A DNA stretch of 64,000 nt from a virus: IMG/VR virus record IMGVR_UViG_3300029554_000001, one strand, 5' to 3'. The notes beneath the pieces are model-generated. The model did not search any database, was not told where the DNA came from, and worked only from the letters and a program-made list of their open reading frames with translations. Position numbers and translations under genes: made by a program. Positions within the stretch are counted from its first letter, which is position 1. Every line of letters starts with the position of its first letter. Below are positions 3,997 through 42,001 of the stretch, piece after piece.

Positions 3997-5146
3997 ATCG
4001 CCTAAAGCTGTTGTAAATGAAGAAGCTAAAATGATTACTATGACTTAGGATAAACCTGAAGAAGATGTTTCATTGAAGGCTATTCAGCAAAGATGGGCTA
4101 CTATTTTTGGTAAATACGCTTCTACTGGTTTTGACAACTTGGCTGGCGCTTGGGCTATGTCTTGGAGTCAATTAAATAATCCGTTTTTGCAGAATCAACG
4201 TATTAAACAAGTTAACGCTAAGGCTCAAAAAGTTCAATCAGAAGACCTTCAAAATGCTTTAAACAATCCAGAAAACTCTGAAATGACTTTTTAGAGAATC
4301 AGTATGTGGCTGTATTATACTAATTATGTTTACAATATTTTAGTAAAACTTAATAGAGATACTCCCTTATTTAATTATTATTATATCCCAGAGTATGTTG
4401 ACTCGAAAGATATGTCTACCGAAGCTTTTAAAAAAGAAAGTCAAAAAGTCGATAAGATTTTAAAAGCTTTTAAACCAAATTTAACTTTAAAAACTATTAC
4501 TACTCAGGTGAGTTTGGAAGGTAAATCTTCTTATTTACCTCGTACAAGCTATGATAAGAATGATGTTAATTTTTTTGTCATGCAGAAACTTAATACTGAT
4601 ATGGTTAAATTGATTGGTTTTGGTAGTAAACAGTAGTTTACTATTGCTTTTAATATGGCAATTTTCCTTCAACCAGCTTATGATGTTAGTCAGTATCCTC
4701 AATTTATTCAGGATGTCTGGAATCAAATGCTGGAAACAGGAATTGTTGTTATAGATTAGAAAACTAAGAAAAAGAGAATTTCTCCTAAAGCGAAACTTCC
4801 CGATGGTCACATCTTGGAAAGCAATGGAGAAAATTATATGTATTGGGTAAGATTGCCTCAAGATTTGTGTTATACATTCTATTTTGATGGCTCTCATCCT
4901 AATGCATTCCCTGATACAATTGGCTTGTTTGATGATTTGACAGACTTGGATGACTATAAATGGTTGCAAGCAAATTTATTAAGTAAAGGTGTTAATAGTG
5001 TTTTAACTGCTGAGGTTCCTATTACGAAGGATGCCAAGGCCCGGTCCGACTCTACTGTTATTACTCCTGATACAATTCTTGGTTATCAGGATTTCTTTGC
5101 GGAGAATATTTCAGGTAATATATTGCCTTTCTTCGCACCATTTAGT
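3956..5146 (+). CDS. portal-like protein, exon 1
   Basis: GGGAGG SD 9 nt before TTG 3956. ORFs 4073, 4304 and 4814 share one frame, joined by TAG at 4046, 4292, 4634 and 4757. The portal call rests on size (633 aa spliced), position at the head-module start and general sequence character only. Confidence 0.55.
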
Positions 5147-7176: not shown

Positions 7177-7180
7177 AAGT

Positions 7181-7411
7181 GTGAATTTGATTAAAACATT
7201 TAAAGAAAAAAAGTGGTGTATTAAAAAAGACCACACAAATTCTGAACCTTGTTGTAATCATAATCCTTTAGACTCTAATACCACGTTGCAAAAAAGCACG
7301 AAAAAATTAATGGTTTCTCCTGATAAATAGTTTTACATTTGTTCGCAATGTCAAAAATGTTTCGTCTTTAATACAGACGAAAAGGGAGAATTAATAATTG
7401 AGAAAGCTTGA
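7181..7411 (+). CDS. small Cys-rich (zinc-ribbon-like) protein
   Basis: GTG 7181. 76 codons with one in-frame TAG. Contains CC..ICSQCQKC. Stops at TGA 7409-7411. Confidence 0.4.
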
Positions 7412-7453
7412 TTGTTCCCTTTTTTCAGTCTTTCGTAAAGGAGGTCGATTAAA

Positions 7454-7714
7454 TTGGACCCTACAATTATAATTGCTATAATTTCCTTTATCGGAACTTG
7501 TGTTGGTACTATTGGTGGTATCATTACTACCAATAAATTAACCAATTATAAAATCGAGCAGTTGCAACGAAAAGTAGATGCTCACAATAATCTAATTACT
7601 CGTACCTACGAGTTGGAAAAGAATATGGGAATTGTTTTCCAGAAAATAGAGGAAAATAAATCTGATATTCAGGATATTAAAAAAGATGTCAAAGGAATTA
7701 TGGAGAAACTATAA
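7454..7714 (+). CDS. membrane-anchored coiled-coil protein
   Basis: AAAGGAGG SD before TTG 7454. N-terminal TM segment IIIAIISFIGTCVGTIGGIITT followed by a charged helical region. Confidence 0.6.
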   Translation: MDPTIIIAIISFIGTCVGTIGGIITTNKLTNYKIEQLQRKVDAHNNLITRTYELEKNMGIVFQKIEENKSDIQDIKKDVKGIMEKL

Positions 7715-7738
7715 AAAGGAAAGTGAGAGGACAATAAT

Positions 7739-17687: not shown

Positions 17688-18695
17688 TTGGCAATATCTA
17701 AAGAGTTACAAGCTAAAATGGAAATGTACGAACAAGCCTATTTCGGTCTGGATTTACCAGTGCCATTTAAAGGCTTGTTAATTTATCCAGTTTTAACGAA
17801 AGATTACTATAATTTTTATGCTAATTTATCTTGTTTTACTCAAGATAAAAATATTAAAGAAATAAAAGTTGTAGATGAAAATGGAATAGAAACTACTAAA
17901 AAAGTGGCTAATCCTGAAGGTATTGGTATGTCTTATATGGCATATTTAATATAGAATATGGAAAACCAAGAATATGGACCTATGGTTACTTCTTAGGTAA
18001 TTAATATGTTCGAACTTGTGCTCCATGAAAAAAATGGTTTGTTTTGTCCTCATTGTGGATTCAAACGAACTTAGTTTGAAGTTATCAAAGAATATGCTAA
18101 ATTCCAAGAAACATTACCTGATAATTTAAGCGAAACTGAAAAGAAAGTTAAAGCTCTTGAGTTTATTAATAATTATGCTATATGTCCAGAATGTAAAAAC
18201 AAAATGAGAGATATCTATGGAATTCAAACGGGTGCTAATGGCGTGAAAAAATTATATATATACGATATAGTTTTAGAACCAAAAGAACTTGATGAATTTA
18301 TAGCTATTATTACACACCAAAATATTTTGGATTACGATGGAGATAGGTATATCGACCCCAATTTAAGAGAAGAAATGGAATTAAAGGCGAGGATGCAGAA
18401 CAAGAATTACACATCTCCAAGTTTGGAAAAATAGCTTGTCTGTATATCCATTAGTTCTCCATACACTATGGAGATGTTAAAAGAACAAGTAAGTTTGAGA
18501 AAACTTTCTTTAATGCTAAAAACCATTGATGCTAAGGGGTATTATTACGCTTAGATTTAGGGTGCTATGTCTCGGATGGTTTAGTTTAAGGATGGAGACA
18601 TTCACCATTGGATATTTACTGATAACAAGAAGGATATGTCTAAGGAAATTATGACAATGAATGATTTCCAAAAGAAGTTTGCTTCTGTTACATAA
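17688..18695 (+). CDS. hypothetical protein with CxxC..CxxC zinc ribbon
   Basis: ORFs 17688 and 18204 share one frame, with 7 in-frame TAG. Contains FCPHCG and ICPECK. TAA at 18693-18695. Confidence 0.55.
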
Positions 18696-19501
18696 TGGAG
18701 AGAAAAGTGGAAAAATTTACGACTGAAGAAAAACAAAATATTATAAAAGAATATGAGTCTGGATTGTCTTCTGGATAGCTGGCAGAAAAATATCGGTGTA
18801 ATAAATCGACAATTTGCGACATTCTTAAAAAGAATGGAGTTAAAGCAAGAGATGGACATTTTAAGAGATAGTATTCTTTTAATGAACATTATTTTGACAA
18901 AATTGATTCAGAAGATAAAGCTTATTTTTTGGGTTTGTTATTTGCTGATGGATGTAATTTAAAAGAAAGAAATGTAGTTTGTATTGAGTTGGTAAAAACT
19001 GATTCTGCTATATTAGAAAAATTTGCTGAAGTAACTGAAAATAATAGACCATTGTATGATTATAATCACAAAAATGGTTAGACTTCTACAAAATTAAGTT
19101 TTACTAGTAAATATTTTTGTGAAATTCTTGATAAACTTGGATGTGTACCAAGGAAGTCTTTGGTATTGCAATTTCCAGATTATTTAGACAAATCTCTTTT
19201 AAGACATTTTCTTAGAGGATATTTTGATGGAGATGGAAGTATTACTTTATATAGAGGTAAAAGTACGATTAATCGGCAAGCTTCTGTAGTAAGTAGTAAA
19301 GATTTTATAGAATCTCTTAAAGAAAAAATAAACCAAATTAACCCGAACATACATTACATTACTAGGTCAACTGGTAATGGAAGTAGTTTGGTTTTATGTA
19401 GGAAAGATTCTATTAAAGAATTTTTATCTTATATTTATGAAGACTGTTCTATATATTTAGAAAGAAAATTTCTAAGATATCAAGAACTAATAAATAAATA
19501 A
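18695..19501 (+). CDS. LAGLIDADG homing endonuclease, free-standing, directly upstream of intron C
   Basis: ATG overlaps the previous stop (TAATG). Frame of ORF 19160-19501 with 3 in-frame TAG. Two LAGLIDADG-type motifs, YFLGLLFADGC and LRGYFDGDGS. N-terminal HTH-like region. Confidence 0.75.
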
Positions 19502-19515
19502 GGAGGATATATATT

Positions 19516-19522
19516 ATGTTAT
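19516..19522 (+). CDS. major tail protein, 7-nt exon 1 (ATGTTAT)
   Basis: AAGGAGG SD 8 nt upstream of ATG 19516. GTTAT (19518-19522) pairs with GTAAC (19556-19560), with U.G at the splice site. Phase-1 end matches the phase of exon 2. Confidence 0.55.
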
Positions 19523-19916
19523 CGGATGCCGAGTCCGCATTTGCTTGGCTAAAGAGTAACCGTATACAGTGATGTGTATGTAAAAATAGTCTTTGAATTG
19601 CTGGAATTCCCTAAAGCTGTTTATGCTACAACAAAAGGATGAAATATGCCTAATTGTGAATGCTACGAAAGTAAAAAGAAATAAACAGATGATATATGGT
19701 TAAATCCTAAGTGTTGAATAATGGGTAATCAGCCGCTAAGTCTTGAATAAAGAAAAGTTCAACGACCATTTCGAAAGGAAGTATACCACAAGTGATTGGT
19801 GGTAGAAGTGGAGACTGCCTTTTAATAAAAGGTAATGATATGGTCTAATCTTATATGAAAATATAAGGCGAAAGCAAAATAAGAGTAGCGTCTTATTTTA
19901 AATTAAAATGTTTTAG
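19523..19916 (+). mobile_element. group I intron C (major tail gene), ORF-less
   Basis: 394 nt. P2 CGTATACA-GTGA-TGTGTATG at 19561-19580. Core blocks homologous to A and B (TTGCTGGAATTCCCTAAAG at 19598, GGTAATCAGCCGCTAAG, GTTCAACGACCAT). Terminal G 19916. Confidence 0.6.
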
Positions 19917-20938
19917 CTGGTGTAGGCCGCGCCACTCTTCTCGATGGCGAGCGCCTTGTTGCTACTGCAAATACTCTGATTGATTCTAGTATTACTATTG
20001 GAATCAGCTTCGAGGACCTGCGTGCTGGTATGGGCAATAAGCTTTATGGTCGTTATGCGCATACTTCTACTTTTGACCTCAAGCTGACCGATGCCATGTT
20101 CTCTCTTGAGTATCTTGCCATGAATACTGGTTCTGAGGTTGAACTCGGTGGTGACGCTATGAAAGACGAGAAGCTCACTGCTGATGCTACTGGTAAGGTT
20201 ACTTTGTCTTATAAGGCTGTTCCTATGGTTGGTAATACTAATGTTTATGCTTATATTAAGAAGTCTGGCACCGACGAAGGCTATCAGCGTTATGCTGTTG
20301 CTGGCGATGGTGTAAATGAAGTTTCTCTTGGTGAGGCAATGAAGGATGCCGAAGTTTGTGTTCGTTATATGTATCATAATGATATTGCTTCTAAGATTAC
20401 CATTAGCGCTAACTTCATTCCTAAGACTCTGACTTGCATTCTTGAGGCTAATCTTTACAACGGTGGTTCTTGTGATGTTGAGACCTCTACCCTCGCTGGT
20501 AAGGTTATCATTAAGGTTCCTCGTTTCATGCTCAACGGTTCTCAAGAACTCAGCATGAGCGCTTCTGGTGTTTCTAACACTTCTATTGAAGGTTCTGCTC
20601 TTGCTTCTGGTTGTGCTGGCTGCGACGGCGACGGCGTTTATGCTGAAATCGTTCAGGTTCTTGAAAACAAGACCGCCGCTGACATGTTCGCTAGCATTGT
20701 TATTGAGGATAAAAACCAGACCGCAAAGGCTGGCGATAAGATTGAACTTAACGTCTATGCTTGCCCTGTTGATGGTGCTCCTATTAAGTTGAATCCTGAC
20801 CAGTATACGGTTGCTGTTACCACTGGTGCTAGCACTTATGCTAATGGTGTCGTTACCGTTGTGGATACTAGTGTCGTTACTGTTAAGTTTGTCCCTAATG
20901 ATAAGCTTTCCGACACTATGAATATTACTGTTGCTTAA
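19917..20938 (+). CDS. major tail (tube) protein with C-terminal Ig-like domain, exon 2
   Basis: Frame of ORF 20030-20938 is open back to 19907. T + CT makes TCT, giving MLSGVGRATLLDG... Strong codon bias and no TAG. The C-terminal ~90 aa have a Big_2-like pattern. Spliced product is 342 aa. Confidence 0.6.
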
Positions 20939-21833: not shown

Positions 21834-23282
21834 ATGAGTAAAAGCAAAGACAAGATTAGAGTAAGTTTTAAAAATTCTGGAGCGGCAGAAGATGTAACAG
21901 GTTCTTGTACTGTTATTACATGGGGAAAGCCAGAACGAACAATTCTTGTCGATTGTGGATTGGTACAAGGTAATCAAAGTCTTTTGAAAGAATATCAGGC
22001 TAATAGTGCAAGATTTACATTTAAAGAGAAGAATGTAGATTATGTATTTGTGACCCATTCGCATGTTGACCATTCAGGTCGTTTAAGCCTTTTAACCAAA
22101 AGAGGATTTGATGGAAAAATTATTGTGCCTGATGGTAATAAAGATTTAATTCGAGAATTGCAATTAGATAGTGCTAAGATTATGTTAAGAGATGTTGAAG
22201 ATTTGTCTCGAAAACTTAAAAGGGAATATTCTCCGATTTATGAAGAATCTGATGTAAAAGATATGCTTACTCATATTGAAGAATATCCTTTTAAGGAAAG
22301 AATTAAATTAGACGATGATGTAACATTTGAGTTTATTCCTTCTGGACATATTGTTGGTGCTGCTCAATTGATTCTATATATCAAAAATGGTAGTGTTACC
22401 CGTAAAATAGCGTTTACTGGTGATTTAGGTAATATTAGAACCGAAACTTATTATGCAAATAAGTTTGAACCTATTCAAAATGCAAATTTGTTAGTGGGTG
22501 AATCTACTTATGCCAGCAAAGAAAAAAGTGCTAAAGCAAAAGATAGAGAAAAAGATTTAGAAAAGATTAAAACTTTTGTGTATGATGTTTGTATTGATGG
22601 AAAAGGAAAGTTACTTTTTCCTTCTTTCTCTTTAATGAGAAGTCAAGTAATTTTAACCATTCTTTACGAAATGTTTAAAGATGACGAGAATTTTAATATT
22701 CCTGTTTATGTTGGCTCTCCTTTAACTTGTAAAATTAATAAAATTTTTAATGAAATTTTAGAGGGTGAGCAACTTAAGAGATGGATTGAAGCTTCTTCAT
22801 GGGATAAGGTTAAATTTATCAATAATTATGAAGAGATTGAGCAAATTTTAGTAAAGCCTGACCCAGCAATTTTTATTTCTAGTGCAGGAATGCTTAACGC
22901 TGGTTTTGCTGTAGGTATTGCTGAAAAGCTCCTTCCAAGTGCTAAGAATGGAATTGCATTTATTGGGTATTCTGTTGAAGGGTCTTTGGCTTGGAAAATT
23001 AAACAAAAGAAGACTAAGACCGTTGCCATTAATGGAAAACAAATCCTGAGTCGTTGTAGAGTAATTAACTTAAATAGTTTTTCAAGTCACATGCAAAGAG
23101 ATGAGCTTTGCGATTATTACAGCGGTGGTCTTGGAACTAGCGGTTATGGTAAAGTTGTCCTTCAACATGGTAATATGAAAGATAGAGTTGAACTGAGTAA
23201 AACTTTATCGGAGCTTATTAGTAAAAGAAATAGAACAGACAAAGTTGTTGTAGCTAATAAATCAACAGAAATTTTATTGTAA
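21834..23282 (+). CDS. MBL-fold beta-CASP-type nuclease (RNase J/CPSF/SNM1-like)
   Basis: GGGGG SD. 482-aa intact ORF. Metallo-beta-lactamase motif THSHVDHSG plus downstream D/H motifs. No TAG. Confidence 0.7.
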   Translation: MSKSKDKIRVSFKNSGAAEDVTGSCTVITWGKPERTILVDCGLVQGNQSLLKEYQANSARFTFKEKNVDYVFVTHSHVDHSGRLSLLTKRGFDGKIIVPDGNKDLIRELQLDSAKIMLRDVEDLSRKLKREYSPIYEESDVKDMLTHIEEYPFKERIKLDDDVTFEFIPSGHIVGAAQLILYIKNGSVTRKIAFTGDLGNIRTETYYANKFEPIQNANLLVGESTYASKEKSAKAKDREKDLEKIKTFVYDVCIDGKGKLLFPSFSLMRSQVILTILYEMFKDDENFNIPVYVGSPLTCKINKIFNEILEGEQLKRWIEASSWDKVKFINNYEEIEQILVKPDPAIFISSAGMLNAGFAVGIAEKLLPSAKNGIAFIGYSVEGSLAWKIKQKKTKTVAINGKQILSRCRVINLNSFSSHMQRDELCDYYSGGLGTSGYGKVVLQHGNMKDRVELSKTLSELISKRNRTDKVVVANKSTEILL

Positions 23283-23296
23283 TTAAATAATTGTAT

Positions 23297-23318
23297 AAAA
23301 AGCTTCACAAAGCTTTTT
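23297..23318 (+). terminator. rho-independent terminator
   Basis: AAAAAGCTT pairs with AAGCTTTTT around a 4-nt loop. Confidence 0.65.
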
Positions 23319-23330
23319 AAATAAACCTAT

Positions 23331-23795
23331 TGACACAAGAGGTCAGGGTTGCCAGAGAAGTTGTATATTGGGCTACCATCCAGTGATGCAATGGAGGCTT
23401 ATTAGGGTTGTCAGGTTTCCACAGGGTAGCAATTAAAACTGTCCGACCAACATACTTTCATGCGTGGTTTCAAACGGAAGAGAAAGGCGTTTTAAGGTGT
23501 CGGCATAAACCTTATCATCTTATATACCATGTTGTATATTTAGACCAGCTACGAGGCATAGTCTTGCAGCTTTTTAATGTGGTGTCCATGAGCACAGGAT
23601 AAGGACTTAAAGAAGACCAAATTTACGGGTTCGTAAAACGGGTCTGAGCCATATATCTCATGTACCATGTGTACAAGGAGTTCCTTAAGACGTTAGAGTT
23701 TAGCTTTAGCGTTTTATGCAATGAAAAAGGTGAGACAGGGAGTAGCTACCTTTTGTTTTGCCCCAACAAAACAATTATCATCTTTTTCATTTTTA
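23331..23795 (+). ncRNA. candidate structured non-coding RNA (class unknown)
   Basis: About 460 nt with no credible ORF in a genome otherwise packed with genes. Visibly more G+C than its surroundings. Chain of helices: 23341-47/23442-48 enclosing 23372-77/23425-30; 23472-76/23488-92; 23522-27/23534-39; 23614-18/23641-45 enclosing TTTACG-GGTT-CGTAAA; a 14-bp helix 23686-99/23703-16; 23725-31/23748-54; and the terminator-like 23753-60/23767-74 followed by a T-rich tail. The strand is assumed. Confidence 0.4.
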
Positions 23796-23818
23796 ATTAA
23801 GACTTGGGGGTTTTAGTT

Positions 23819-25069
23819 ATGGGAATACAAGAATTTAATACTGAAACAAAGTTAACTTGTGCGTAGATTAGAGATGGGGAAACTCTATTTTATTCTAAAA
23901 AGACAGGTAATAGAAAACCTATTATATGGGGAGTATATTTTATTAGAAATATGCAAAATAATAAGGTTTATGTAGGTTCCTCCAATGATATAGTTAGAAG
24001 ATGGAAAAACCATTGTAGTGATTTAATTTATTAGAATCATATAAATAAGCATCTATCTGCGGCATGGTTAAAATATGGGCAAGATAGTTTTGTTTTTGAA
24101 TTAAAAGAAATTTATGAACCAAATGATAAATTTGATAAAAAAGAAAATTTAGATTGTCTTCGTAAAAGAGAACAGTATTATATAAATTTATATGATACTA
24201 GTAATAATAAAAAGGGGTATAATGAAAGCAATTTAGCGACAAATCCTTCTATTAATGTTACTGAAAAACTCCTTAATGGAGAACGAGCAATATCTCCGTA
24301 GCAGTTTTACAAAGTTGTTGATTTACTTTTGAATTCTGAGTTGAATTTAAGAGAAATTTCAGATGAAACTGGAGTAAAATATACTACTGTTAAAGATATA
24401 TATTAGAAAAGAGAGTATAAAGAATTATTAACTGGTTATAATTTTCCTGTAAGAAGTAATGATAAAACTGATAAGTTAAAGCGAGAGCATTGGAATGATA
24501 TAATGAATTTATATAATTTGGGAATGCCCGCTGAACAAATCAGCAGAGAAATTAATTGTGGAATTAGCGTGCTAAAAAATCTTTTAAGAAAAGAGGGTAT
24601 TCCGTTTGGTGTGAATAAGCCTCGTTATTTTATTTTTGATTTATATGGTAATTTAATTGGAAGTTATTTTAGTTCTTCTGACGCTGGAAAATTAATTGGA
24701 TAGAAAAGTTAGACTATTGTATCAGCGGCAAATCATGGTTGTTTGGTTGATAAAAAATATAAAATTTCAAAAAATCCAGAACCACCATCTTTCACTGAAA
24801 CAGAAAAAATATTTGGTCATTATATTTCATCTTTTGGGAAAAGTATCATTGCTGTTGCTTATAAAAATGGTAAGCCAGACAAGGTTTATAACGGCATAAG
24901 ACCAACTTTTTCAGATAAAGATGCAGAAAAAATTATAGATGCTTTAAAACAAAATAGCAATGAAGAAATTTTTGGTTATACTTGGAAACGTCTTGAAGAT
25001 GTTCCCGATTTAGACAAATAGATTTTAATGAATAAAAATTTAAAGGTTAAAAAAGGTGTTTTAAAATGA
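23819..25069 (+). CDS. free-standing GIY-YIG homing endonuclease
   Basis: GGGGG SD. ORFs 24503 and 24743 share a frame with ATG 23819, with 7 in-frame TAG. GVYFIRN..NKVYVGSSNDIVRRWKNH motif and C-terminal HTH-like repeats. The real stop, TGA 25067-25069, overlaps the next ATG (ATGA). Confidence 0.75.
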
Positions 25070-25725
25070 GTACTGACAAGTGCAAGAACGATAGTTTGTC
25101 AAATTTAGTTGAACTTATTGATATTGAACCAGAAGGTAATCTTTAGCTTCCAACTCCCTCTCTTCTGCAATATTATTTAGACAGAAAAGAAAGAGTTATT
25201 TGGATTGATAAAGACATTGATGATGATTTGTTTAATGAAATTAGACAAATTATTCAGTATAATAGAGAAGATGAAAAAAATAACATTCCCGTAGAAAACC
25301 GTAAAATTTGTAAAATAATGCTTTAGTCTTATGGAGGAACTTTGGATTCTTGCTTTGCTTTGCTGGATGTAATGAAGATTTCTAAAACTCCTATTTATAC
25401 TTATAATTTAAATGCTTGTATGAGTGCAGCAGCATTAATTTATCTGAATGGACATAAGCGTTTTGCAATGCCAAAATCTACTGTTCTTATTCATGCTGGT
25501 CAGGGAGGTAGCGTTGGTCGGTATGATGCTGTGTTGGCGCAAACAGAAAATTATAAGAGATTAATGGATATGCTTAAAGAAAATGTGCTTGAACATACCA
25601 AAATTGGAAAAGCTTTCTTAAATAAGCAGATGAAGAAAGAATGGTATATTTACATTGATGACCAGATTAAGTATGGAATCACTGATGAAATCATTACTGA
25701 CATTACTCAGATTGTAGGAGAATAA
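25066..25725 (+). CDS. clpP: ClpP-like serine peptidase (S14 family)
   Basis: ATG 25066 is in frame with ORF 25342 through TAG at 25144 and 25324. SYGG, CMSAAALI (Ser), LIHAG (His) and downstream Asp context resemble ClpP. Confidence 0.6.
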
Positions 25726-30438: not shown

Positions 30439-30452
30439 GGAGGAGATTGAAA

Positions 30453-33400
30453 ATGGCTCAAAATCAATACGAAGTAGAAATAAAGCTTGGCTTGGACAAA
30501 AGTACTTAGCTTTTAGACCGAGAAATTGAGAAAATAGATAAAACACTTACTGATAAAATGAGTAAGTTGAATAAACAATTTGAAGAATCTATCAAAGGAT
30601 AGAATTTAACTGCACAAGAAAGATTCGCAAGAAGGTCAGATTTCTTACAAAAAAACAATAGTTCTACTTAGTCTTTACAGTCACAAAAAGAGACTCTTCT
30701 TAGTAAAAAAGCCCAAATTTCTAAAATGTCTGGTGAAATTTCCAATATTGGAAGTGTAAATAGTCAATTTGACACTATTGGAAAATATTTAGCCGAAAGA
30801 GTTGATTTTATTAAACAATTAGATTCTTGGATTGGGCAATATACTAAACAAATCACAGAATTTAAGCCTGTTATTGTTGCTGCCGAGCAACAAAAAGCCT
30901 ATCAACAAAAAATAAAGAAAGAAAGAGAAAAAGCAGCGAAAACAGGCAAAGTAGACTATAAAGCTGAAACCATGGCAAAAAGGAATTTAACTGAGGAATA
31001 GTATAATAAAGAAATTGATGCCATGAGTAAATATTATGAAGCTAACGCAAAAACTAATTAGGCGGAAGAAGATAAAATTACTCGACAGAAAGAGGCTCGT
31101 TTTGCTGAGGAAATGAAAAGGATTGTAACTTAGCAAAAGAAATCTAAAATGTCGGATACGGAGTTTGAGAAACGCCGTCCACAGATAGAAAAAGATGTCA
31201 AAGCATATGTAGATAAGACTCATGCTGGTGGCATAAAAACTTTAGCTGGTTCTGATAAATGGGGTCGAAAAATAGAAGTTAGAGGCTTCCAAGAAGGTTT
31301 TGTAAAAGATTCAGATGACCACTATGTTGATGCTAAAGGCCGTGTTGTAAAAGGTACTGACACTTCTGTTTTAAGAACTACTGCATTTGCTCCTTTTATT
31401 AATAAAGAAGGTGAGTATGTTTCCGCGACTAATTCTGAAGGGCGGCTTAAAAAGTCTATTAGAGTTTATGACCCACGTTTAGCAAATATAGGAAATGTTG
31501 GACAGGTTGGAGATTTAAGAAACCAAACCTATACAGGAATAGAAAATGCATATAATTCTTTGTTGAATCAGCTTAAGATTTTAGAAAGTGGTGGAAAACA
31601 AGGAACTGAGGAATACCAAAAGATTTCTCAACTAGCTTCTTTGATTCCTGAAGTGATTAAAGATGCTTATGCCAATACTTCTTCCAAGGAAATTAAAGCT
31701 GCTTTTGAAGAAGCTTTAACTGGAATGAAAAGTGGTATTACCTCTCTTGAATCTGAGGAGTCCTCGATTGGAGGAGCTTTATATAAAAATAGTGAACTTA
31801 GCGGTGTTTTAAGAGAGCAATTAAAATTAAAAGGTAAAGTATCTAAGATTCAACGGTGGGAAGTGGGGGAGTTACCTGAAATTCCCACACAAGATAAAAC
31901 TGATAGAACAGATGAAAAGCAAATAAAGAGAGACCAAATTAGTGCTAAACAGCAAGAAGTTATTGACCAAAAACATAAAGATGAACTTTGGCATTCAATA
32001 GAAGGGGCCAAAGAAAGTACTTATGATGATAAGGGAGAGCTTTTACAATAGGGTATAAAAGATTTCTTGGCTGGCTTATCTGGTGACAAAGAATAGTTGC
32101 ACAACGCTGTTTTAGCGCTGGTAGAACAAATAGTTCAAACCGCTGGTGTTGATATTGATGCAAAACAGCAAATGAGCGAGGTTATATCTCAACAATCTAT
32201 TAATGTCCCTATAAAATATAAAGGAGAAGAGCGGAATAGTACGTTAGAAAGTGCAATCACTGGAACTTCAAGTGCTAAATATCAAGCTGTTTTAGAAGAA
32301 CAAAGAAGTAAGATGGCTGGAGGGTTATCTGAAGGATTCCAACGTATTCAATCTGCATTAGCATTTCAACAAACTGGAACAGCAGGGGATGAAGCTGTCA
32401 AGCAAGCAGTTGAGAGAATAAATTGGCTCGCTGATATTGTAAGTGAAATAGGTGGCAATTCTGAGCTAGAAGAAGGACTTCGTAAAATAGCAGAAGGTAA
32501 TCCTCGGTTTACTGGAATGGACGCAAACACTATTGCAAATTCTATTTCTAAAATTTATGCTTTTTCCGAGGGGATGGACGCATCTCTTTCTCATAATTTA
32601 AACAATTTAAACCAAGCGAGATAGGCACAAGGACTTAAACCTATCAAAGAAGAAAAATACAGAGAAAAATTCTTCAAAGAAAATCCTGAAATAGCTCAAA
32701 AATATGAAGAATCTAAAGCTGCAAGAGAACGTTATGATTCAGTCGAATCTGACAAGGTAAGTGACAAATTACAAGCGTTCTTTTCTGTTGTTGGACAAAC
32801 AGAAGAAGGGGTTAATAAGTTTATTACAGTTCTTGCTAAAGCTTACGAGAATTTGAACGGAACTATTTCTAAAGTTGTAAAAACAGATGAGGGAGACCGT
32901 AGAGCTACTGCTTCTGCTCAAAGATGGGTGGAAGATACTGTAGAATATAGAGTGAGTTCTTCTGGCAATGCCATTAACCCAAACAAAGGAGTGAATGCTC
33001 CCTATTATCAAAGAGAGGGTATCAGAGGTTAGGATGTAAACTGGGAAGAAATTACAAGTAATCCTTCTCCTGCTTTAACTACCAATTTGTAGAACAAAGC
33101 TGGTTTAACTGGTAATATTTATGATGGTAACAGTCCCCAAGAAAATGCTGAGATTGCAAAAAGTATTCTTGAACAGAAAAAGAAAGAGCTTGCAAGAGTA
33201 CAAGCTTTAGTTGCTAATCCTAAGAGTGAAGCAAGTAAAAATAAAAATTTAAAACGTATTCAAGAAATTTAGGCTGAAATAGATTTTCATTATAAAAACT
33301 GGGATGAACTTGTTATGGCTCAAACCCCAGTTGTTAGAAAAGGTAAAAAGAATACAGGAAAAGATGATTTTAATGTTCCTGTTGCAACGCCCTTGAATCC

Positions 33401-36400
33401 TGAAGCTGAAAGAATCAAGAATTTAAAAGAAAGTGTAAAACAATCTGGTTTTTCTCAAGGGTCTTCTTTTACTGCTAAAAATTCTGTTAGGCGGACTTTT
33501 GGTGGAACAATTACTGGTATAAAAGGAGAAGGAGCTCGGCAAGTTATTGAAGCTCTTTTAGAAGACGGTAAAACTGTTAAATATACGTTTGATAGTTTAT
33601 TAAAATAGCTTATTACTTACTCAGAACAAGCTGCAACAACAGTTGAGGATGTTTCTGAACAAATTAAAACCAATGTAATTCAAGATTCTCAACAAATAGA
33701 ACAAGCAATTGAATCTACTCCTACTATGGCAAATGAAACGTCTCAAACAGAAAAAGCTTTACAACAAGAAGAGGCGGCTATAACCGATGTTAATACTGCT
33801 TTAGATAAACATGAAACAGAAGTTTTATCTGCGGCAGATGCAGAACAACAAAAGATTTTAGTGTCTCAAGATTTAGTTAAATAGTTAACTAAAGAAGAGG
33901 GCGCTTTAGATAAAGTAAGTGAAAGCGCCAAAGAAGCTGAAATTCAAAAAGGTGTTACATATACATATAAAGATTTGCAATCTTATGATGATGCAACACA
34001 TACTTATACCGATACTAATGGTAATAAGTTAAGAAGTATTACTCAACTTGGTGGAGCTTTAAAGGGCTTTATTCCTTCTGCAACAGCTATTGCTGACGAA
34101 AAAGCTTTTATGGCTGCTATTGCTAACACTCCTAAAGGAGAACAATTAACTGCTGAAAAAATTGGCATGACCGCGCAAGACTTTGCTAAAAAGAAAAATG
34201 CAATTATAAGTAGGGAAAAAGGCAATTTAGAGCATGAGGTTTTTGACCTTTTAAGTAAGACTGGATTTTCTGGAGTTGAAGGTTTTGCTGGAAAAGATGT
34301 TGAGGTAAAATGGAACGGTGCTACAGAGATAGTAGATGCTCAAGAACAATTCGCAAGAGTATTAAAAGAAAAAGCAGACCTTTTATCCAAGCTTGGTATT
34401 GACAATGCTGAACAACTTTTATTACAAGCTGTCGAGAGTTATACTAAAGCAATAAATAACGCTCATATTCAATTAACTCCTTTCTCTGAAACTCCTATGG
34501 CTGCGAGTTTTAGTGGTCCAAAAGGAACTTTTGATTATTCTTTTACACCCGACTAGATTGCAAGGAGTTCTGATGGTTCTCCACAGAATTTTATTCTTGA
34601 TACCAAAACTGGTAAGACTTATGGTACAGAAAGTTTCCAACTTGCAGGACAATTGTACGGTGTTTTAGCTAATGCTCAAAACCCTGAATTCCAAAAATTA
34701 TATCAAGAAAGTGGAATTGACACAGATAAAGATTTTTCACTTTTTATCGCCGATGTTAAAGATGGATTTACTCAATTAATTCAACACATGGCTTTAACTG
34801 AAGAGGAATTTTACGACCTCCTTGTTAGAGCAAATGATATTATAGATGGCAAGGCTGAACCTTTAACTAAAGATGAACAAGCAGCTCTCATGAATAGAGA
34901 GATGACCACAGGTAGAGTTTTTGGTAGGTCAGAATCTCCTGTATCTGAAAAAGCTGCTAATAATAATTTTGTTTCTTACGCTCCTGATGAAAATGGTAGC
35001 ATTGATAAAAGAGAGCAAGCTATTATTGGTAGTTATTTAACTGAGTATCAGAAATTAATAAATTATCAAACCCAATTAAATAATTTAAAGAAGCAACAAG
35101 AAGAATTAGCCCAAAATGGTGTCGGTTATACTAGTGAAGAATCACAAAAACTTGAACAACAAATATCGACCATGCAATCTACAGTTAATCTTCAAAAGAA
35201 GATTATGGCGGAAAAGAATCTTGATTATAAGGTTTTAAACACACCTCGGGAAGCTGACAAAGTTGCAATAGGGAATGTTCTTTTATCTGACAAGGGTAGC
35301 AAACTTGCTACGCTGCAATGGGCTAAAATAAATGCGCTTAGTAGTAATAAGCAGAGAAAAAATGACACCAGTGTTACTACTCAGCAAAATACAGAAGCAA
35401 CAAAGGATTTAGATTTACTTTTAAGTCAATATAAAGAACTTCTAAGTCTTCAAAATTAGTTGAAAGAGTCTAACATTAAAGCTGAAAGTTTAACAGGGGA
35501 CAAGCAAGCCGCTCAACAAAATGCTTCTGCTAATTTGCAAGAAAGAATTGATAAACTTCGTGAAATTTCTACTCTTACTGGTGAAATAACAGATGAGAAG
35601 AGAATTGAAGAAGAAATTACAAAAGCCACTTATTTAACTGAGAGTGAAAGAGCTAAGAAATTAAATACTCTTAGAACTACAGTAGGAGAAGCAAATCAAA
35701 AGAATTTAGACATTGACACTAAATATGCTCAAGCGGCAAGAAATAATAACCCAACTCTTCAAAATACTTTAACTGGTTATTATAGAAACCTTGAAGAACA
35801 AGGTAGAATTGAAAGAGAAATTGCTAGAGCAGAAAATAAAGGAATGTCTTTAACTGGAAATGCGGCTATTGAAAATAAATCCTTTATTCATTCTCTGCAA
35901 AGTTAGAAAAACAATTTAGCAAACCAATATAAATATGACGAGCAAAAGAAAACTTTAAATGGTATTGAATTAACAGAAGAGCAAATTAACAAATTAGAAC
36001 AAGAAAGAACTCGTATCTTAAACAACAACCAAATTGAGATGGATAGAGTTGGAAATTCTGTTAATCAAACTAAAGGCTTTTTAACTCAACTTAAGGATAA
36101 TTTTAAAGATAGCTTTTCTCAAATTGGAATGGCTATAATGCAAATATTTTCTTTCCAGTAGATATAGAAAGTATTTAATGATTTTATTTCTGCTACTGAA
36201 AGACTTGACTAGAAAATGGTTGACCTTCAAATTGCAAGTGGTTATACCAAGAGTAATATTCACGATATGATGCTTGAGTTTAATGACTTGGCAAAAGAAA
36301 TCGGTAAAACTACTGAAGAAATTGCTGAAGCTGCAAACGATTGGCTTCGTGCTGGTTACGAAGGACAAGAAGCATCTCAATTAACTAATGCTTCTATGCA

Positions 36401-39400
36401 ATTAAGTACGCTTGGTATGATTAATAGCGCTGATGCTACGAGTTATCTGATTAGTGTGCTTAAAGGATGGAAGTTAGAAGCAACCGAAATTCAAGGAGTA
36501 GTGGACAAATTAACTGCTGTTGACATGCAGGCCGCTATAAGTGCTGGTGATTTGGCAGAAGCTATGTCTCGTGCTAGTAATTCTGCACAAATGGCTGGTA
36601 CAAGTTTAGATAGATATATTGCGTATCTTACCACTATTACAGATGTAACTCAAAAGAGCGCTGCGTCTGTTGGTGAATCTATGAAAACGGTTTATGCACG
36701 TTATTAGAACATTGCCGCTGGTAAATTTGTAGCTGCTGAGTCTGATATTGAAAGCGAGAATTATAATGCCGATGAATGGGCTAACTTAAATGATGTTGAA
36801 AAAGCTCTTGGTGCGTTGGGTATTAATATTAGAGATTCTGTATCTAGCTTTAGAGACTTTGATGATATTATGGATGAAATTGCTAGCAAGTGGAATACAT
36901 ATACAGACGTTCAAAAATCTGGTATTGCTACTTCTCTGGCTGGTGTGAGACAGCGTGAAAACTTGCTTACCTTGTTTGAAAACTGGGACGCTGTTGAAAA
37001 ATTTGAAGAAATTTCTACTAATGCATATGGCACTGCTATTGAAAAAATGAAGTCTTATACTGATAGTGTTGAAGCTGCCAAGAATAGAGTTACTGTTGCT
37101 CTTGAAAAGTGGGTTTTAGCTCTTAATCAGTCTGATACTTTGATTTGGTTCTATAATGCTGTTGCAGACGTTTCTGATAATCTTGTAGCATGGGCGGGAG
37201 CTATTTTACTAGCAACTGCTGCAATGAACTCTGTTGGTTTTGGAAGTACAATGCAAAATGCATGGTCTAAATTTGTTTCATCTTGTATTAATGTTTCTAT
37301 GAAACTTGATAAAATGAATATTTCAACTCAGGGATATTTTACTCAAGGCGGAAGACAAAGTTTAGGAGAATCTTTAAAAGCAAATTATACTGAATCGTTT
37401 AATGTGGCTCTTAAAGAGAATTACGCAAAAAGCTTAACTAATACTATTAATAGTTTAGATAATTTAACTGATAGTACTAAAAAGATATTGGTTGATGGTT
37501 ATGTTCCAATGCAAAATTCCATGCTTAATTACAATACTAAAATAAAAGAAAATATTGCCAGTATTTTAAAAAACACTGCGCTTACCGACGAGTAGGCGGC
37601 ATTACAGCTACGAGAAAATTTGGCTGACCAAAACAATGCATGGGTAGATGCTATGTTGTCTACTATAGATTAGGAAGAGCTTCGTTTAAGGACTGAACAA
37701 ATCACTCAAGGTCAAAGAAGCTTGACTGATGAAGAAAAGCTTTAGATAGCCACAGAAGAATTGGCAAGAAGACGTAATGATGCGGCAGTCAGAACTGTTG
37801 CAGATGATTTAGAAGGCTCTTCTAGGATAAGTCCTCAAAGAGCGGCTTTAAAAGGTGGCGCAACCATGGTTGGGTCTGGTCTTGGTGCTTTAGCTGGTAT
37901 GGCTATTGGAGAAAATCTTCTTGGTGGTGGTTGGGCAACTTCTTTAGGAACCATGATAGGTATGGGTATTGGTGGAAAAGCTACTTCCACTATGGCTCTT
38001 GCATTTGCTGACGCTATGGCGGCAGGAGGTTCTATTTTTACTGGTATGAAGGCAGGCGCAATGGCTTTAGGTCCTGTTCTCGGTATTGGAGTTGCGGCTT
38101 TAGCTATTGGGGCTGGTTATGCTTTGTATAAAAAGCACCAACAAAAAATGATAGAAGAAGCTAAAACTGCTTTTACAGATGCAGCAGAAGAATTAACTAA
38201 TGCCAAATCTTTACAAGCTACCGCTTAGAAATATGATGAACTTTCTAAGGGTGTTGATTCTTTGGGAAGAAATGTTTCTCTTACTGATGAAGAATACGAA
38301 AAATTCCTTGATTATAGTAATCAATTAGTAGAAGCATTTCCTGAATTACGTATTCGTACAGATGAAAATGGCAACGCTATTGCTGATATGGGTAATGAAA
38401 TGGAAACCACTTCTGATAAGGTTAAGGGGTTAATAGATTCTTTACAAACATTGGCAGATTAGAGAATGGTTATGGGTTCTGATGGTGAAAAAGTATTACA
38501 AGATACTTTAGATACTGCGGCTCAGGAATATAAAGATGCGCTTTCAGATTTGAATAATGCAAGGGCTGACAGGGCTAATAATTATACCGATGTAATGGCT
38601 TTACAACAACAAAGAGACCAAGCACAAGAAGAATTAGACAAAGCCCGTGAAGATTACAATGATGCCGAAATAAAACAGCTTCAAGATGAATTAATCAATG
38701 CACAAAATAAATTGGCTGGATATCAGCAAAGACAAGCAAACGGAGAAAAGAATTTAGGTAGTGTCATAGTTCTTGCGCAAGATAATGTTGATAGAGCTAA
38801 AAGAGCTTATGAAAATAAAGTTGGACATCAAGATATTAATACCCTTGAAAATCAAGTTGCTGACCTTGACGTTAAGATAAAAGAAGCTCAAGCTGAAAAT
38901 AACGCTGGTGAAGCTGCTGTTGATGCAGCTCAAAATGCTTATGATAGAGCTATTATAAGTGCTAAAGAAACATTAAGTGAATCTGGTAAGGCTTATGCAA
39001 GACTTATTGGGGCTTATGAAGATGTTGATGATGTAACCAGCAACTTGTTTGATAATGCTATTGGTTCTATTGATGCTGTTGATAAAGCTGGAAATGCCTT
39101 GTCTCCTGAAATGTATAAGCAAAAAGTTAGAGACATGATTAATTCTGTCAATGGTCTTGTTTCTGATGAAACTGTAAAAACTTTAATTGAAGCAACAGAT
39201 GAAAAAATAAACACTGATATGACTGTTGCAGATGCTAATAAAGCTAGAACACAATTAAAGAAATATCTTGAAGATACTTTCCCGAATATTGAAGATGATG
39301 AAAATTTGATGAAAATTGTGGTTGGAATTGGATTTGAAGTTGTTGATGGTGAAATTGTTGATAAATAGAACATAGCACAACAATTTAAAGACAAGTATGG

Positions 39401-42001
39401 ATTTAGTAAACAACCACGGGGTATTACAGAGGATTATTTTAATTCTCTTACTGTTTCTCAAGGTCAAAAACTGTTTAATTGGATGGGTACAGATGGTTAT
39501 TTCTCTAATGGAGTGAATACAAATCAAAGCATTGTTAATTCTATGTTTTACGCAGATAGAGAAACTCCAACTAAATTAACTGGTGAAAATGGGTTAATTA
39601 ATAAATATCTTGAAGATATGAATGCTATGAATGACCTTGAAGCTAAGATTGATGAAGTTTTTAACGGTGATAAATACGATTTAAAGAACTCTAATCTTAA
39701 CGAACTTTTCGCCGAATTTCCTGAAACTGTTAGGAACAGTTTAAGTCAAGTATAGGAAGCCCTTAATAATGGAGACATTGATAAAAATGGATTAGCTGAT
39801 TAGCTGAGGGCGACTTATGATAATGCTTATTCTACTGTTTTGGACGAAGGTAAAAAGATTGCTGAAACTATGTCTTCACAATATTTTTCTGATTTGGAAT
39901 TACCTGACGGCTATATCAAATCTTGGTCTGAATTAAAAGAAGCTTTTTCTGATGTTTCTAGTATTTTTGACCAACTTGCTGATGCAAGAGAGGAAATGGC
40001 CTCTTCTGGCAGATTAAGTATCGAAACCACTCTTGAACTTCTCTCTACAAATGCTGATTATATTAATGCTTTGGAGATTGAGGGAGAGAATATTGTGCTT
40101 AAAACTGACGCCGAAGAAATAATGAATAAAGTTAGACTTTAGACTATTGCTGTTAGTTTACAAGCACAGATTCAAGAAGATAATTTAAGAGTTGCACAAT
40201 TAAAGAATCAACTTCAAACTTTAATGTTGTCTGGTACTTATATTGAAACTTCTGATGCTTTGGTTGAATCTACCAAGGCTAAAGTTTATGCTTATGATTC
40301 AGAAGGAGAAGCTCTTGCTAATTTAGCTAATCAATATTTAACGGCTGCGAATGCTGCTTCTTTGTTGAATAGAGCCCAAAATGGAGAAACAGTAGATATA
40401 GGCAGTGTAAAAGCTGTTAAAACTATTAAGTACACTCCTACAGATAAGTCGGCTTTGGAAAGTAAGACTATTGATTTATCTGGTAATACTGAAGCTCTGC
40501 AAAAATAGATTGAAGTTACCAAGTCTGAGTTGAAAAGTTTGGTTGGTAGTTTTGACGAAGTTGTTACTACAGATAAAACTGGCAAGGTTACTGGTTATGA
40601 TGTTAAATTTAAGACCCATACTGATAAAGATGGAAATATTCATTATGATGAAGGTAATATTGCTATGCGTGAGCACTTGCTTTATAGTGTTTAGGACATG
40701 CTTGAGTCTGGTAATTTAGCTAAAGCGTTCAAGAAAGGTTATACAAAACCAATAAAGAGTGCTGGCAAAGCTGCGAAAGATACTAAAGATAAAGTTCTTG
40801 ACCTTCTCAAAGCTTATGATTCTTTAATCGACAAAGAATGGGAAGCAATGAAAGTATTTGATGAAAATACTTTAACTCCTACTGGATATACCCAATATTT
40901 TGAAAAGAAGAGAGCAAGTCTTGAAAAATTAGCGGCTTATTATGAAGGTATGATGCAAAATACCAATCTCACAGAAGAAGAGAGATTAGATGCAGAAAAG
41001 AATTATATTGAGAATCAAAAAGCTATTAATAACCTTGATGATGAAGAGGTTGAAGACAAGTATAAGATTCTTGAATTATATGGAGCTTCTATTAATTCTT
41101 TGATTTTGATGAAGCAGCAATTAGTTAAGACTTCTGACACATATGAAGAACTTCTTGAGAATCAGAAAGACCTTAATAATCTGCTTCAAGACGAGATTGA
41201 TTTGCGTAAAGAGGTTTCTGAATGGCAACAGAAGTTAAGTGACCGTGAACTTGATTATGTAAAAGGAAGCGCGTGGAGTAATAGTTCTGCTTATGATGCA
41301 GCTATGAACGCTTCTCTTGCAGAAATTGAAAAGTAGATTGAAGCTACTAAAGCTTCTATTCAATTTAATTTTAGTCAAGCTGTTTATGGTTATATGACTG
41401 AAGGTATGAGTGAAATGGAAGCTCGTGCTCATGTTGCATTTGGTAATAGTGATTATTCCAAGGCATATCGTGAAGCACAGCAAGAATATCTTGATTTAAT
41501 TGACTCTAAGACTGAATATGTTGTTAATAGAACTTCTGCACAAATTGAAGAACTTTCTAATAAGCTACAACTTCTTGAAGATTCCAAACCTCAAGAGTGG
41601 ATTAGAATTTCTGATATTGAAAGCTACTATGCAAGTAGGAGCACTTTATTGCAAAATCAAGTTAGTGTTTATCAGAAGGCGTTGGAAGATGTGTCTGATT
41701 TAACTGATGAACAAATTAAAGACCTTGTTGATGGCTTAAATGAAGCTACGGTTGCTTTACATGAAGCTAAGATAAATGCTTTGGAAGATAAGACCGAGCT
41801 TCAAGAAAAGCAATATGATGCAATTGTTTATAGAATTAATCTTTATAAGGATGAGCTTCAGGATGCTATTGATGCTATTGAAAAGGCTTATGAAGATGAG
41901 ATAAAACCCTTGGAAGATGCCAATAAAGAGCGTCAAAGAGCTATAGAACTTGAAAATCTTCTCTTGGCTAAAAAGAACGCCAATAAAGAGAAGGAGAGAG
42001 T
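30453..42001 (+). CDS. giant tail tape-measure protein, exon 1
   Basis: AAGGAGG SD before ATG 30453. The 18 ORF-track fragments from 30726 to 41394 are all in frame 0 and separated only by TAG (33 in this exon). TP901-type tape-measure core at about 36216-37100 (AANDWLRAGY..DKLTAVDMQAAISAGDLAEAM). Gly/Ala-rich TM/glycine-zipper region at 37761-38228. Long coiled coils. Confidence 0.75.

Follow-up and report, generated by a model that had tools for sequence, protein, structure and literature searches.

A drum RNA, a new three-hairpin motif and an uncatalogued two-hairpin unit in one non-coding region of a human-gut jumbo phage

We analysed positions 23,331 to 23,795 of a viral DNA of 64,000 nucleotides (nt), IMG/VR record IMGVR_UViG_3300029554_000001, referred to as the window. 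This non-coding region lies between the gene of a beta-CASP nuclease and a ClpP-like gene of a human-gut jumbo phage of ~215 kilobases (kb) in which TAG is recoded. It consists of five or six small structured-RNA modules in the order drum, C, E'/T0, D2, E/T1 and F (coordinates in Table 1), which are gained, lost and swapped between related phages. We propose that they form a + strand island of small, separately evolving RNA units whose products probably act in trans. The candidate put forward in an earlier note, made from the letters alone, was a single large ornate RNA of the ROOL or GOLLD kind; this is not supported, since the modules are separable, one of them is the known drum RNA and no large-RNA model matches.

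The gap free of open reading frames (ORFs) between the nuclease gene and the following GIY-YIG gene extends from 23283 to 23803 (521 nt), the nuclease stop codon being at 23280-23282 and the GIY-YIG start codon at 23819. As TAG is evidently an amino acid codon here, ORF scans were repeated with TAG, then TGA, as sense. Stop-to-stop frames in the gap reach at most 71 amino acids (aa) under the standard code, 78 aa if TAG is sense and 93 aa if TGA is. No protein-coding signal was found in it, and in particular no pattern of third-position conservation. The description of the region as ORF-free therefore holds with TAG as sense as well. It had also been called the largest such gap: with TAG as sense it is among the largest on the + strand of the window, two others being of comparable size, that of a group I intron (19502-20029) and a region of small ORFs (7177-7738). 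The latter, ~560 nt long in a map of ORFs of at least 90 aa, is not RNA: it holds small ORFs, one of them with a membrane-spanning segment, and its G+C content is 0.30.

The G+C content of 23331-23795 is 0.406 against 0.328 for the whole window, which bears out the enrichment noticed earlier, and it rises to 0.454 in drum and 0.447 in module C. On the + strand the region folds at -127.8 kcal/mol (z = -2.36; 1 of 100 shuffles equally good), and on the - strand no better than shuffles (z = -0.32). Only the + strand thus beats shuffled sequences, and covarying G-U pairs, which would be A-C on the other strand, agree with it; both results sustain the assignment to a structured RNA read from the + strand. 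The two boundaries that had been proposed can be read directly: the region starts after the terminator-like hairpin of the upstream gene, which is retained in close relatives with variation at loop positions only, and ends in a hairpin with a T-run at 23753-23795. A scan of 23150-23950 for terminator-like sites found T0 as the sole site.

The Rfam search proposed in the earlier note returned one family in the gap, drum (RF02958), and no match to ROOL, GOLLD, HEARO, RNase P or introns. ROOL, GOLLD, HEARO and other large RNAs gave no match at the gathering threshold anywhere in the window, nor at E <= 10 over 23200-23900. The other families found in the gap at E <= 10 were TarB and PVT1, at chance level. 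The 64-kb window holds no transfer RNA (tRNA) or transfer-messenger RNA (tmRNA) detectable with ARAGORN or the Rfam models, and no match to the DUF3800-VIII model (RF03075). The statement that the region matches no known RNA is thus correct for tRNA, tmRNA, RNase P and introns and wrong for drum. Likewise the region is not an entirely new class, its first ~100 nt being drum, and yet module C and the E unit match no Rfam family.

The copy in the window adds a new member to the known drum family. In the Infernal alignment the blocks GAA, GGAG, GGGUUGU, CCACA and AAAAC are in place, with one non-canonical pair, and divergent copies in relatives score 45.6 bits (L014) and 47 bits (L026; loci of the comparison carry L numbers). 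Two drum types occur in the phage family and differ by compensatory changes in both stems: UGCC/GGCU versus UGUC/GACU, and in the second stem GUUGUAUAUUGG/CCAGUGAUGCAAU versus GCCAUAUAUGGG/CCGUGUAUGGU. The pairing of the loop with the 3' side is likewise compensatory (CUACC/GGUAG versus CUAUC/GAUAG, with CUAUC/GGUAG also found); this is the helix GCTACC/GGTAGC that had been picked out by eye, and it is real. The helix at 23341-47/23442-48, seen as closing it, does not vary among relatives and hence carries no covariation information. The 5' flank of drum is unchanged even where the drum stems have diverged (L014, L026 and L104). Its TTGACA may belong to the RNA or serve as a promoter -35 element; at the spacing expected for a promoter there is no good -10 sequence after it.

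The window drum has no Rho-independent terminator of its own. Module C lies directly 3', the last drum bases overlapping its first ones (23441-23446), and the first terminator-like site (23552-23575) comes ~100 nt on. Elsewhere drum occurs as stand-alone copies with their own terminator (contigs L136-L150), and in L139, from a 402-kb contig, a copy (4833-4864, - strand) lies in an array of 32 tRNAs that share its strand. Its neighbours are the beta-CASP nuclease in the window, a SegE-like GIY-YIG gene and an integrase in L149, and tRNA arrays in L139 and L157. Weinberg et al. 2017 (PMC5737381) described drum as an RNA of "sophisticated" features and unknown function, with a Rho-independent terminator 3' and an association with nearby protein genes, and they noted that the genes near drum, skipping-rope and DUF3800 RNAs are connected in some unexplained way. 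In the literature searched there was no functional paper on these three RNAs besides that study and the Rfam notes. The window copy resembles the family in that it matches the full model, is no element of a 5' untranslated region (UTR), is phage-borne and has stems that covary within the phage family; it differs in its marginal score and in running straight into module C instead of a terminator.

Module C is a new RNA motif found only in this family of jumbo phages. Its thirty distinct variants form a gap-free alignment, and in the three-hairpin model 95.8% of the cells are paired, a share that drops to 37-56% once partners are slid. Compensatory changes occur at seven pairs (hairpin 1, four; hairpin 3, three); in 500 shuffles the covariation score was never reached, and RNAalifold independently recovers the same three hairpins. 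The loops are invariant, as are ~50 consecutive bases. Two tertiary pairings are possible, a loop-loop pairing of CUUUC (23455-59) with GAAAG (23482-86) and a pseudoknot of CCG (23443-45) with CGG (23501-03, loop 3). As the positions involved are invariant, both stay conjecture.

A covariance model of module C has a single match in the window (103.5 bits). In 85 other loci, among them nuclease homologues with less than 50% identity and further loci of drum or E, its best score was 15.8 bits (E 0.38), which is not credible. A degenerate pattern of the module found 33 metagenome contigs, all of the same phage family and mostly from human gut, and among genomes one contig, of a gut metagenome-assembled genome labelled Clostridium, whose length equals that of one of the viral contigs (123,382 bp). 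C is the sole module present in all relatives, always 50-350 nt after the nuclease stop codon and on the same strand, and it stays nearly invariant while the adjoining nuclease drifts to 53% identity. Where drum is missing, -10-like hexamers (TATAAT, TATGAT) lie upstream of C.

The third component is the E unit, made of the hairpin E and a hairpin that follows it. The family was defined by the hairpin (UAG)CUCAU-N4-CAUGN-N4-AAGGAG with a covarying inner stem of 4-5 base pairs (bp). The window has one exact hairpin (E) and one copy with four mismatches (E'), the sole pattern sites on both strands of the 64 kb. A search of IMG/VR with a degenerate 19-base pattern, for which we roughly expect about one match by chance, gave more than 118 exact matches in at least 98 distinct contexts; the phages listed differ widely in base composition and the contigs are unrelated. 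The outer pairs CUC/GAG are dictated by the search pattern and so uninformative on covariation. The inner stem is informative: in the 98 contexts listed the pair 6-18 is kept in all (CG 61, GC 31, AU 3, UA 2, UG 1) and the pair 8-16 in 96 (AU 56, GU 32, GC 8, two mismatches). The 32 G-U pairs at 8-16 therefore fix the strand of the E unit.

RNAalifold recovers the E hairpin, with AAGGAG partly paired with CUC. It does not recover the second hairpin, the length of which is too variable for the MAFFT alignment, and the sequences were therefore folded one by one. In the E units listed, the 45 nt after E fold at a mean of -12.6 kcal/mol versus -7.2 for shuffled sequences, and 69% of them reach -10 kcal/mol or below, versus 21% of the shuffled ones. 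The second hairpin begins 3-5 nt after AAGGAG in the family; T1 after E and T0 after E' conform. It is followed by a T-run in 35 of 95 units among the matches listed, and in 14 of 95 a sigma-70-like promoter is positioned to start transcription at E. The 14-bp helix of T1, proposed in the earlier note, is real: it belongs to the minimum-energy fold and is homologous to the hairpin after E in the Bacillus phage SPbeta. Other palindromes take its place in relatives (e.g. ACGTATATTATATAATATACGT), and the variants of T0 show chiefly one-sided or wobble changes. The E unit is not annotated in GenBank phage records, matches no Rfam model, and its sequence was not found in the literature searched. 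Searches of Escherichia coli genomes gave no E match, a weak negative as the 24-nt core is possibly below their sensitivity. E and its following hairpin thus constitute an uncatalogued two-hairpin unit present in about a hundred unrelated phage contexts.

An Rfam scan of 42 E-bearing loci placed the unit among other phage RNAs. L178, L207 and L157 contain drum (3 of the 42); in the first two it is downstream of E at a distance of 78 nt, and in L157 a tRNA intervenes and the two are ~800 nt apart. In three SPbeta-like phages E is followed by DUF3800-VIII at a distance of 93-96 nt. tRNAs are found in 9 of the 42 loci, including two large arrays (among them L156, L157, L165, L196, L216, L220, L221 and L262), and one tRNA array that carries an E unit also contains a ROOL RNA (L221, 5801-6394). 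Among the matches listed, 15 of 98 E sites have a tRNA on the same strand within 500 nt. The abiF RNA (RF03085) is present in 3 of the 42 loci. Sites of abiF were seen at L038 3198-3234, between a nuclease gene and tRNA-Lys, at L161 10230-10266, ~140 nt upstream of the E unit, and in L187 and L193.

The E unit is found in two Vibrio phages and thus crosses the Gram-positive/Gram-negative divide. In one of them, Vibrio phage 1.084.O (L262; 55086-56151 of the phage record), it occupies a 1.07-kb unannotated gap with a tRNA, directly after an HNH nuclease gene. Genes of the HNH or GIY-YIG kind flank drum and E elsewhere too. What lies downstream of E units varies widely and includes genes for recombinases, YonJ-like exonucleases, small proteins of unknown kind and tRNAs. 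The idea that E is the leader of one gene class (terminase or late genes) was rejected on account of the heterogeneity of the first downstream ORFs.

Among isolate phages the gap resembles SPbeta-type Bacillus phages alone, through a stretch of 46 nt (23652-23695) with 93% identity. In SPbeta the match falls in the unannotated 1.7 kb that separate yonN from yonK, with the DUF3800-VIII RNA 80 nt after it, and there are two intact E copies (L001, 3948 and 4008). The published primers for the YonO start site (PMC5467207) map to L001 3027-3269, upstream of both copies, and the same paper mentions "an unannotated non-coding RNA" before yonK. The SPbeta E copies thus lie within the transcribed leader of the YonO-driven late operon. 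Two roles for E were rejected at this point, that of the YonO promoter, the start site being ~700-950 nt upstream of the E copies, and that of a mark of YonO-type polymerases, the window having no YonO or YonJ homologue. What the SPbeta leader and our island share is E with its next hairpin, set in both on the sense strand of a long stretch without ORFs and rich in hairpins. SPbeta differs in that DUF3800-VIII follows its two intact E copies and that it has neither drum nor C, and the phages are otherwise unrelated.

Modules D2 and F complete the island. For D2, 22 variants were compared and 80.5% of the cells are paired, versus 29-47% when slid. The helix AGACC/GGTCT around TTTACG/CGTAAA, also proposed in the earlier note, is real and belongs to this module; two of its pairs (23614/23645 and 23615/23644) change compensatorily in two sequences, to GGAAC/GUUCC. 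In module F a conserved GACAGGGAGUA-GCUA-CC is found, and, judged by eye, seven variants show compensatory changes in the closing helix (GGUGA/UCAUC, GACGA/UCGUC, AAUGA/UCAUU and GAUGG/CCAUC) and the inner stem (UUGUUUUG/CAAAACAA, UUGUC/GACAA and UUGUUCU/AGGAACAA). A palindromic hexamer of F (23741-23750) changes from UAGCUA to UAAUUA across variants with its palindromy kept; it would suit a loop-loop dimerisation between two RNA molecules.

To compare arrangements we used the nuclease protein to collect nine close and 77 wider loci from IMG/VR, the close ones being ~215-kb contigs. In close relatives the gap is ~95% identical up to ~23757 and divergent beyond. The module sets differ from one relative to another: drum, C, E, T1 and F in L028; drum, C and E in L026; C and E in L010; C and D2 in L027; C and F in L008; C and a plain hairpin in L009. 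D2 follows C directly in L027 and is missing from L028, L010 and L008, and in L008 it is F that follows C directly. More distant relatives retain only the ~75-nt core, module C, joined to differing pieces. This independent presence or absence of the modules indicates a cluster of separable units and not one RNA.

In the window E' and E bracket the T0-D2 insertion like direct repeats. In L031 the nuclease is 53% identical and yet its 538-nt gap is 97% identical. L027-L033 and the window (21834-23282) carry two very different nuclease alleles, 53-55% identical, at the same position and with nearly the same island, in jumbo phages that are alike in other respects. Homing with co-conversion of the flanks is a reasonable explanation for near-identical RNA beside very different nuclease alleles. 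After E/T1, the relatives L010 (~4590-4960), L014, L026, L104 and L107 have 250-300 nt of extra conserved non-coding modules that are missing in the window, including a hairpin CCATCAGGC...TGATGG and a block AACAAACTTTAGATAGTGGAAGTTAGAAGAGCG. The L010 version of the gap, extra modules included, had no match in isolate phages.

Table 1. Positions in the window of the island modules, associated hairpins and flanking genes
Feature	Coordinates	Strand	Description
Metallo-beta-lactamase/beta-CASP nuclease gene (RNase J/CPSF73 kind)	21834-23282	+	482 aa; no TAG codons
Terminator-like hairpin of the nuclease gene	23297-23318	+	AAAAAGCTT-CACA-AAGCTTTTT, then T-run; read directly
Conserved 5' flank of drum	23325-23349	+	ACCTATTGACACAAGAGGTCAGGGT, including TTGACA at 23330-23335
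Drum RNA (Rfam RF02958)	23350-23446	+	43.6 bits (gathering score 43); model 1-112 of 112; E = 7e-5 for the window
Module C	23441-23516	+	~75 nt, three hairpins: 23446-23468, 23472-23492 and 23494-23513
E', degenerate E copy	23519-23543	+	CTTATATACCATGTTGTATATTTAG; 4 mismatches to the E pattern
T0, terminator-like hairpin and T-run after E'	23547-23575	+	stem 23552-23566, tail CAGCTTTTTA
Module D2	23579-23652	+	closing helix GUGG/CCAY; inner hairpin 23586-23597; AGACC/GGUCU around UUUACG-GGUU-CGUAAA
E hairpin	23657-23680	+	CUCAU-GUAC-CAUGU-GUAC-AAGGAG; Shine-Dalgarno-like 3' side, no start codon after
T1, second hairpin of the E unit	23686-23716	+	14 bp with G-U pairs; ends in UUUU; in the minimum-energy fold
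Module F	23723-23795	+	closing helix GAAAAAGGUGA (23723-33)/UCAUCUUUUUC (23778-88); inner hairpin 23753-23774; T-run
Free-standing GIY-YIG homing endonuclease gene	23819-25069	+	in-frame TAGs; Pfam GIY-YIG 5.7e-13 with TAG as Gln

The nuclease upstream of the island matches the Pfam families Beta-Casp (9.7e-19) and Lactamase_B (8.7e-13). Its closest solved relatives are Cas14 of type VII CRISPR (E = 1.1e-38), CPSF3, TTHA0252 and IntS11, with E values of about 1e-36 to 1e-38. Since these relatives score alike, it is a generic RNA-cleaving beta-CASP enzyme. The gene is directly upstream of C in every relative inspected, down to a protein identity of 53-55%. Beside its distant homologues, co-oriented tRNA genes lie within 1.5 kb in 32 of 60 cases, up to eight in a row. 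The adjacency of nuclease and RNA, which the earlier note had found suggestive, is real as a conserved position, and a functional link to the nuclease would be conjecture. Matches to group II intron domain V/VI were seen upstream of the nuclease gene in L010 (968-1052, 58.2 bits) and L028 (186-270, 54.7 bits). The group I intron of the window (Rfam 58.4 bits, 19556-19867), the sole intron match there, comes directly after a LAGLIDADG endonuclease ORF (18695-19501).

Downstream of the island the order is the GIY-YIG gene, the ClpP-like gene and, farther on, a tyrosine recombinase gene. The GIY-YIG gene is missing at this site in the close relatives L005 and L112, and different GIY-YIG genes are there in L028 and L008. 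Its absence from close relatives indicates a mobile insertion that stands outside the RNA island. The site just 3' of the island is a hot spot for such genes, with three unrelated ones across relatives. TAG most likely encodes glutamine in this phage. Reading it as sense raises ORF coverage of the + strand from 0.63 to 0.86 and opens an ORF of 3863 aa that contains 33 in-frame TAGs; across relatives, TAG in the ClpP-like gene is in places replaced by CAA or CAG ("NLQLP"). Recoded ORFs are e.g. 23819-25069, 25066-25725 and 30447-42038. The nuclease gene and three other nearby genes are without TAG, and no suppressor tRNA was found in this window.

Taking these results together, we regard an island of separate + strand RNA modules with products acting in trans as the rather probable explanation. 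Transcription would run rightward and end at T0 (~23575), T1 (~23716) and F (~23790), so that two or three short, stable RNAs would result. Drum and C would act in trans, probably as protein-bound RNAs. E, which would often stand at transcript starts or module junctions, could be an end-protection or processing unit comparable to STAB-SD, with its AAGGAG exposed and no start codon; alternatively it might be a leader with a conditional terminator placed before a cargo RNA. The whole site would be the stable-RNA slot of the phage, filled by tRNA genes in distant relatives of the nuclease gene. The nuclease may mature the island RNAs, or these may be built to resist it. We hold the specific role of E to be doubtful, because its position relative to its neighbours is not fixed. 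Still less probable is a wider scheme in which E would be a cross-phylum organiser of stable-RNA islands, setting the ends, stability or read-through of drum, DUF3800-VIII, C and tRNAs, and in this phage family the island would be coupled to the nuclease, its RNAs being dedicated substrates or else C or drum a cofactor that directs or restrains the enzyme in the manner of the Cas14 guide complex.

Several points weigh against this explanation. We infer the transcript ends, strand and stability of the RNAs in this phage from the DNA, and a promoter scan inside the gap gave nothing convincing. Drum exceeds its gathering threshold by only 0.6 bits, a doubt removed by the higher scores of relatives and the compensatory changes in the stems. 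Covariation support is modest and thin for D2, and for F the pairing was assessed by eye. E lies upstream of drum and DUF3800-VIII elsewhere and downstream of drum and C here, and this variable order weakens any single role as a leader or 5' cap. As AAGGAG is partly paired with CUC, ribosome binding to it would be reduced. Finally, nuclease and RNA are linked by position only, for which simple synteny inside a single phage family could account; the covariance model did not find C beside nuclease homologues below about 50% identity.

The terminator-like hairpins that E units precede also suit a cis-acting leader of the downstream ClpP-like operon, in which E and its hairpin would be an attenuation or antitermination checkpoint of the nut/put or lambda PR'-tR' kind, as may also hold for the SPbeta leader. 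The island does precede TAG-containing genes in the window, and in SPbeta E is found inside the YonO-driven late-operon leader (1.3 kb) upstream of yonK. However, E units precede genes of many different kinds and occur within tRNA arrays, which are not translated, drum forms a gene by itself at other loci, and here a homing-endonuclease gene parts the island from the ClpP-like gene with no sign of disruption. Such a leader is in our opinion unlikely. We are slightly more sceptical about one long multi-domain RNA (23331-23795), with C as its core and drum, D2, E and F as peripheral variable domains as in GOLLD and ROOL. Drum and the E unit are independent genes elsewhere, three internal terminator-like hairpins with T-runs split the region, no supported pairing joins the modules, and the module sets are radically different among relatives, with no match to a large-RNA family. 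These facts have to be set against a whole stretch that folds better than shuffles on one strand, a constant C which the other pieces always abut without coding sequence between, and the overlap of the drum end with the start of C.

The constant place of C past the nuclease stop codon, on the same strand, would fit a 3' UTR of the nuclease gene or a target of its autoregulation, in which C and the adjoining modules would stabilise the mRNA or be cut by the enzyme. We find this very unlikely: a terminator-like hairpin stands between gene and island, -10-like hexamers occur upstream of C where drum is missing, and nuclease alleles merely 53% identical carry the same C, which is absent from more distant homologues. 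A DNA-level element, i.e. homing-endonuclease target sites or recombination hot spots as the cause of the conservation, is highly improbable, even though three different GIY-YIG genes are found at the adjacent site, HNH or GIY-YIG genes lie beside drum and E at other loci, E' and E flank T0-D2 like direct repeats and co-conversion could account for the 97%-identical gap beside a 53%-identical gene. Compensatory changes maintain pairing, many G-U pairs are valid on one strand only and the structure-aware Rfam model of drum matches; homing may explain the spread and mosaicism of the modules, not their structure. A decayed or unusually coded protein gene, which a standard ORF scan could miss where TAG is sense, is scarcely credible given that no frame exceeds 78 aa (TAG sense) or 93 aa (TGA sense), that third positions show no conservation pattern and that ~50 consecutive bases of C are invariant.

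The proposed island of separate modules can be compared with several known systems. The tRNA region of phage T4 contains the stable RNAs species 1 and 2 together with Seg endonuclease genes. The likeness lies in stable non-tRNA genes occupying a tRNA slot with free-standing homing endonucleases adjoining, and the context recurs in the drum of the 32-tRNA array (L139), the E and ROOL of another array (L221) and the tRNAs near distant nuclease homologues; the difference is that the window itself has no tRNA gene and its RNAs have no sequence relationship to those of T4. With ROOL and GOLLD the island has in common that it is phage-borne, ORF-free, hairpin-dense and of unknown function, and it differs in being made of separable modules of 25-100 nt instead of one conserved unit of more than 400 nt, with no match to their models.

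STAB-SD and polypurine sequences are 5' stabilisers of Firmicutes RNAs, as in the cryIIIA leader and phage SP82. In the STAB-SD type a Shine-Dalgarno-like sequence close to a stable 5' end binds 30S subunits and blocks 5' exonuclease, and no translation ensues. As a comparison of how E might work, and only in that sense, E has a strong Shine-Dalgarno-like AAGGAG without a start codon in a non-coding RNA, and among the matches listed some units have a promoter placed to start at E (the 14 of 95 above). E differs by the partial pairing of AAGGAG in its hairpin, by a position that is often internal and not 5'-terminal, and by its presence in Vibrio phages, whose hosts to our knowledge have no RNase J. 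The type VII CRISPR system offers the top solved relative of the nuclease, Cas14, and the likeness of a beta-CASP gene adjoining a structured non-coding RNA; no repeats, spacers, Cas7 or Cas5 were seen, and CPSF3, TTHA0252 and IntS11 score almost equally.

The E unit is the most interesting result, as it is widespread, uncatalogued and ties several enigmatic phage RNAs together. Drum and DUF3800-VIII share an E unit ~80-95 nt upstream, as well as neighbourhoods with tRNA arrays and ROOL, which gives a handle on their common features; this shared upstream unit is a concrete form of the link that Weinberg et al. remarked among drum, skipping-rope and DUF3800 RNAs. Its presence in SPbeta of Bacillus subtilis, inside a mapped transcript, offers a tractable model. 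Module C adds a well-supported new RNA motif that is near-invariant across gut jumbo phages. For genome scans the island calls for caution: a long gap dense in hairpins need not be one large RNA and may instead hold several small RNA genes, in a mosaic that recombination and homing endonucleases have shuffled.

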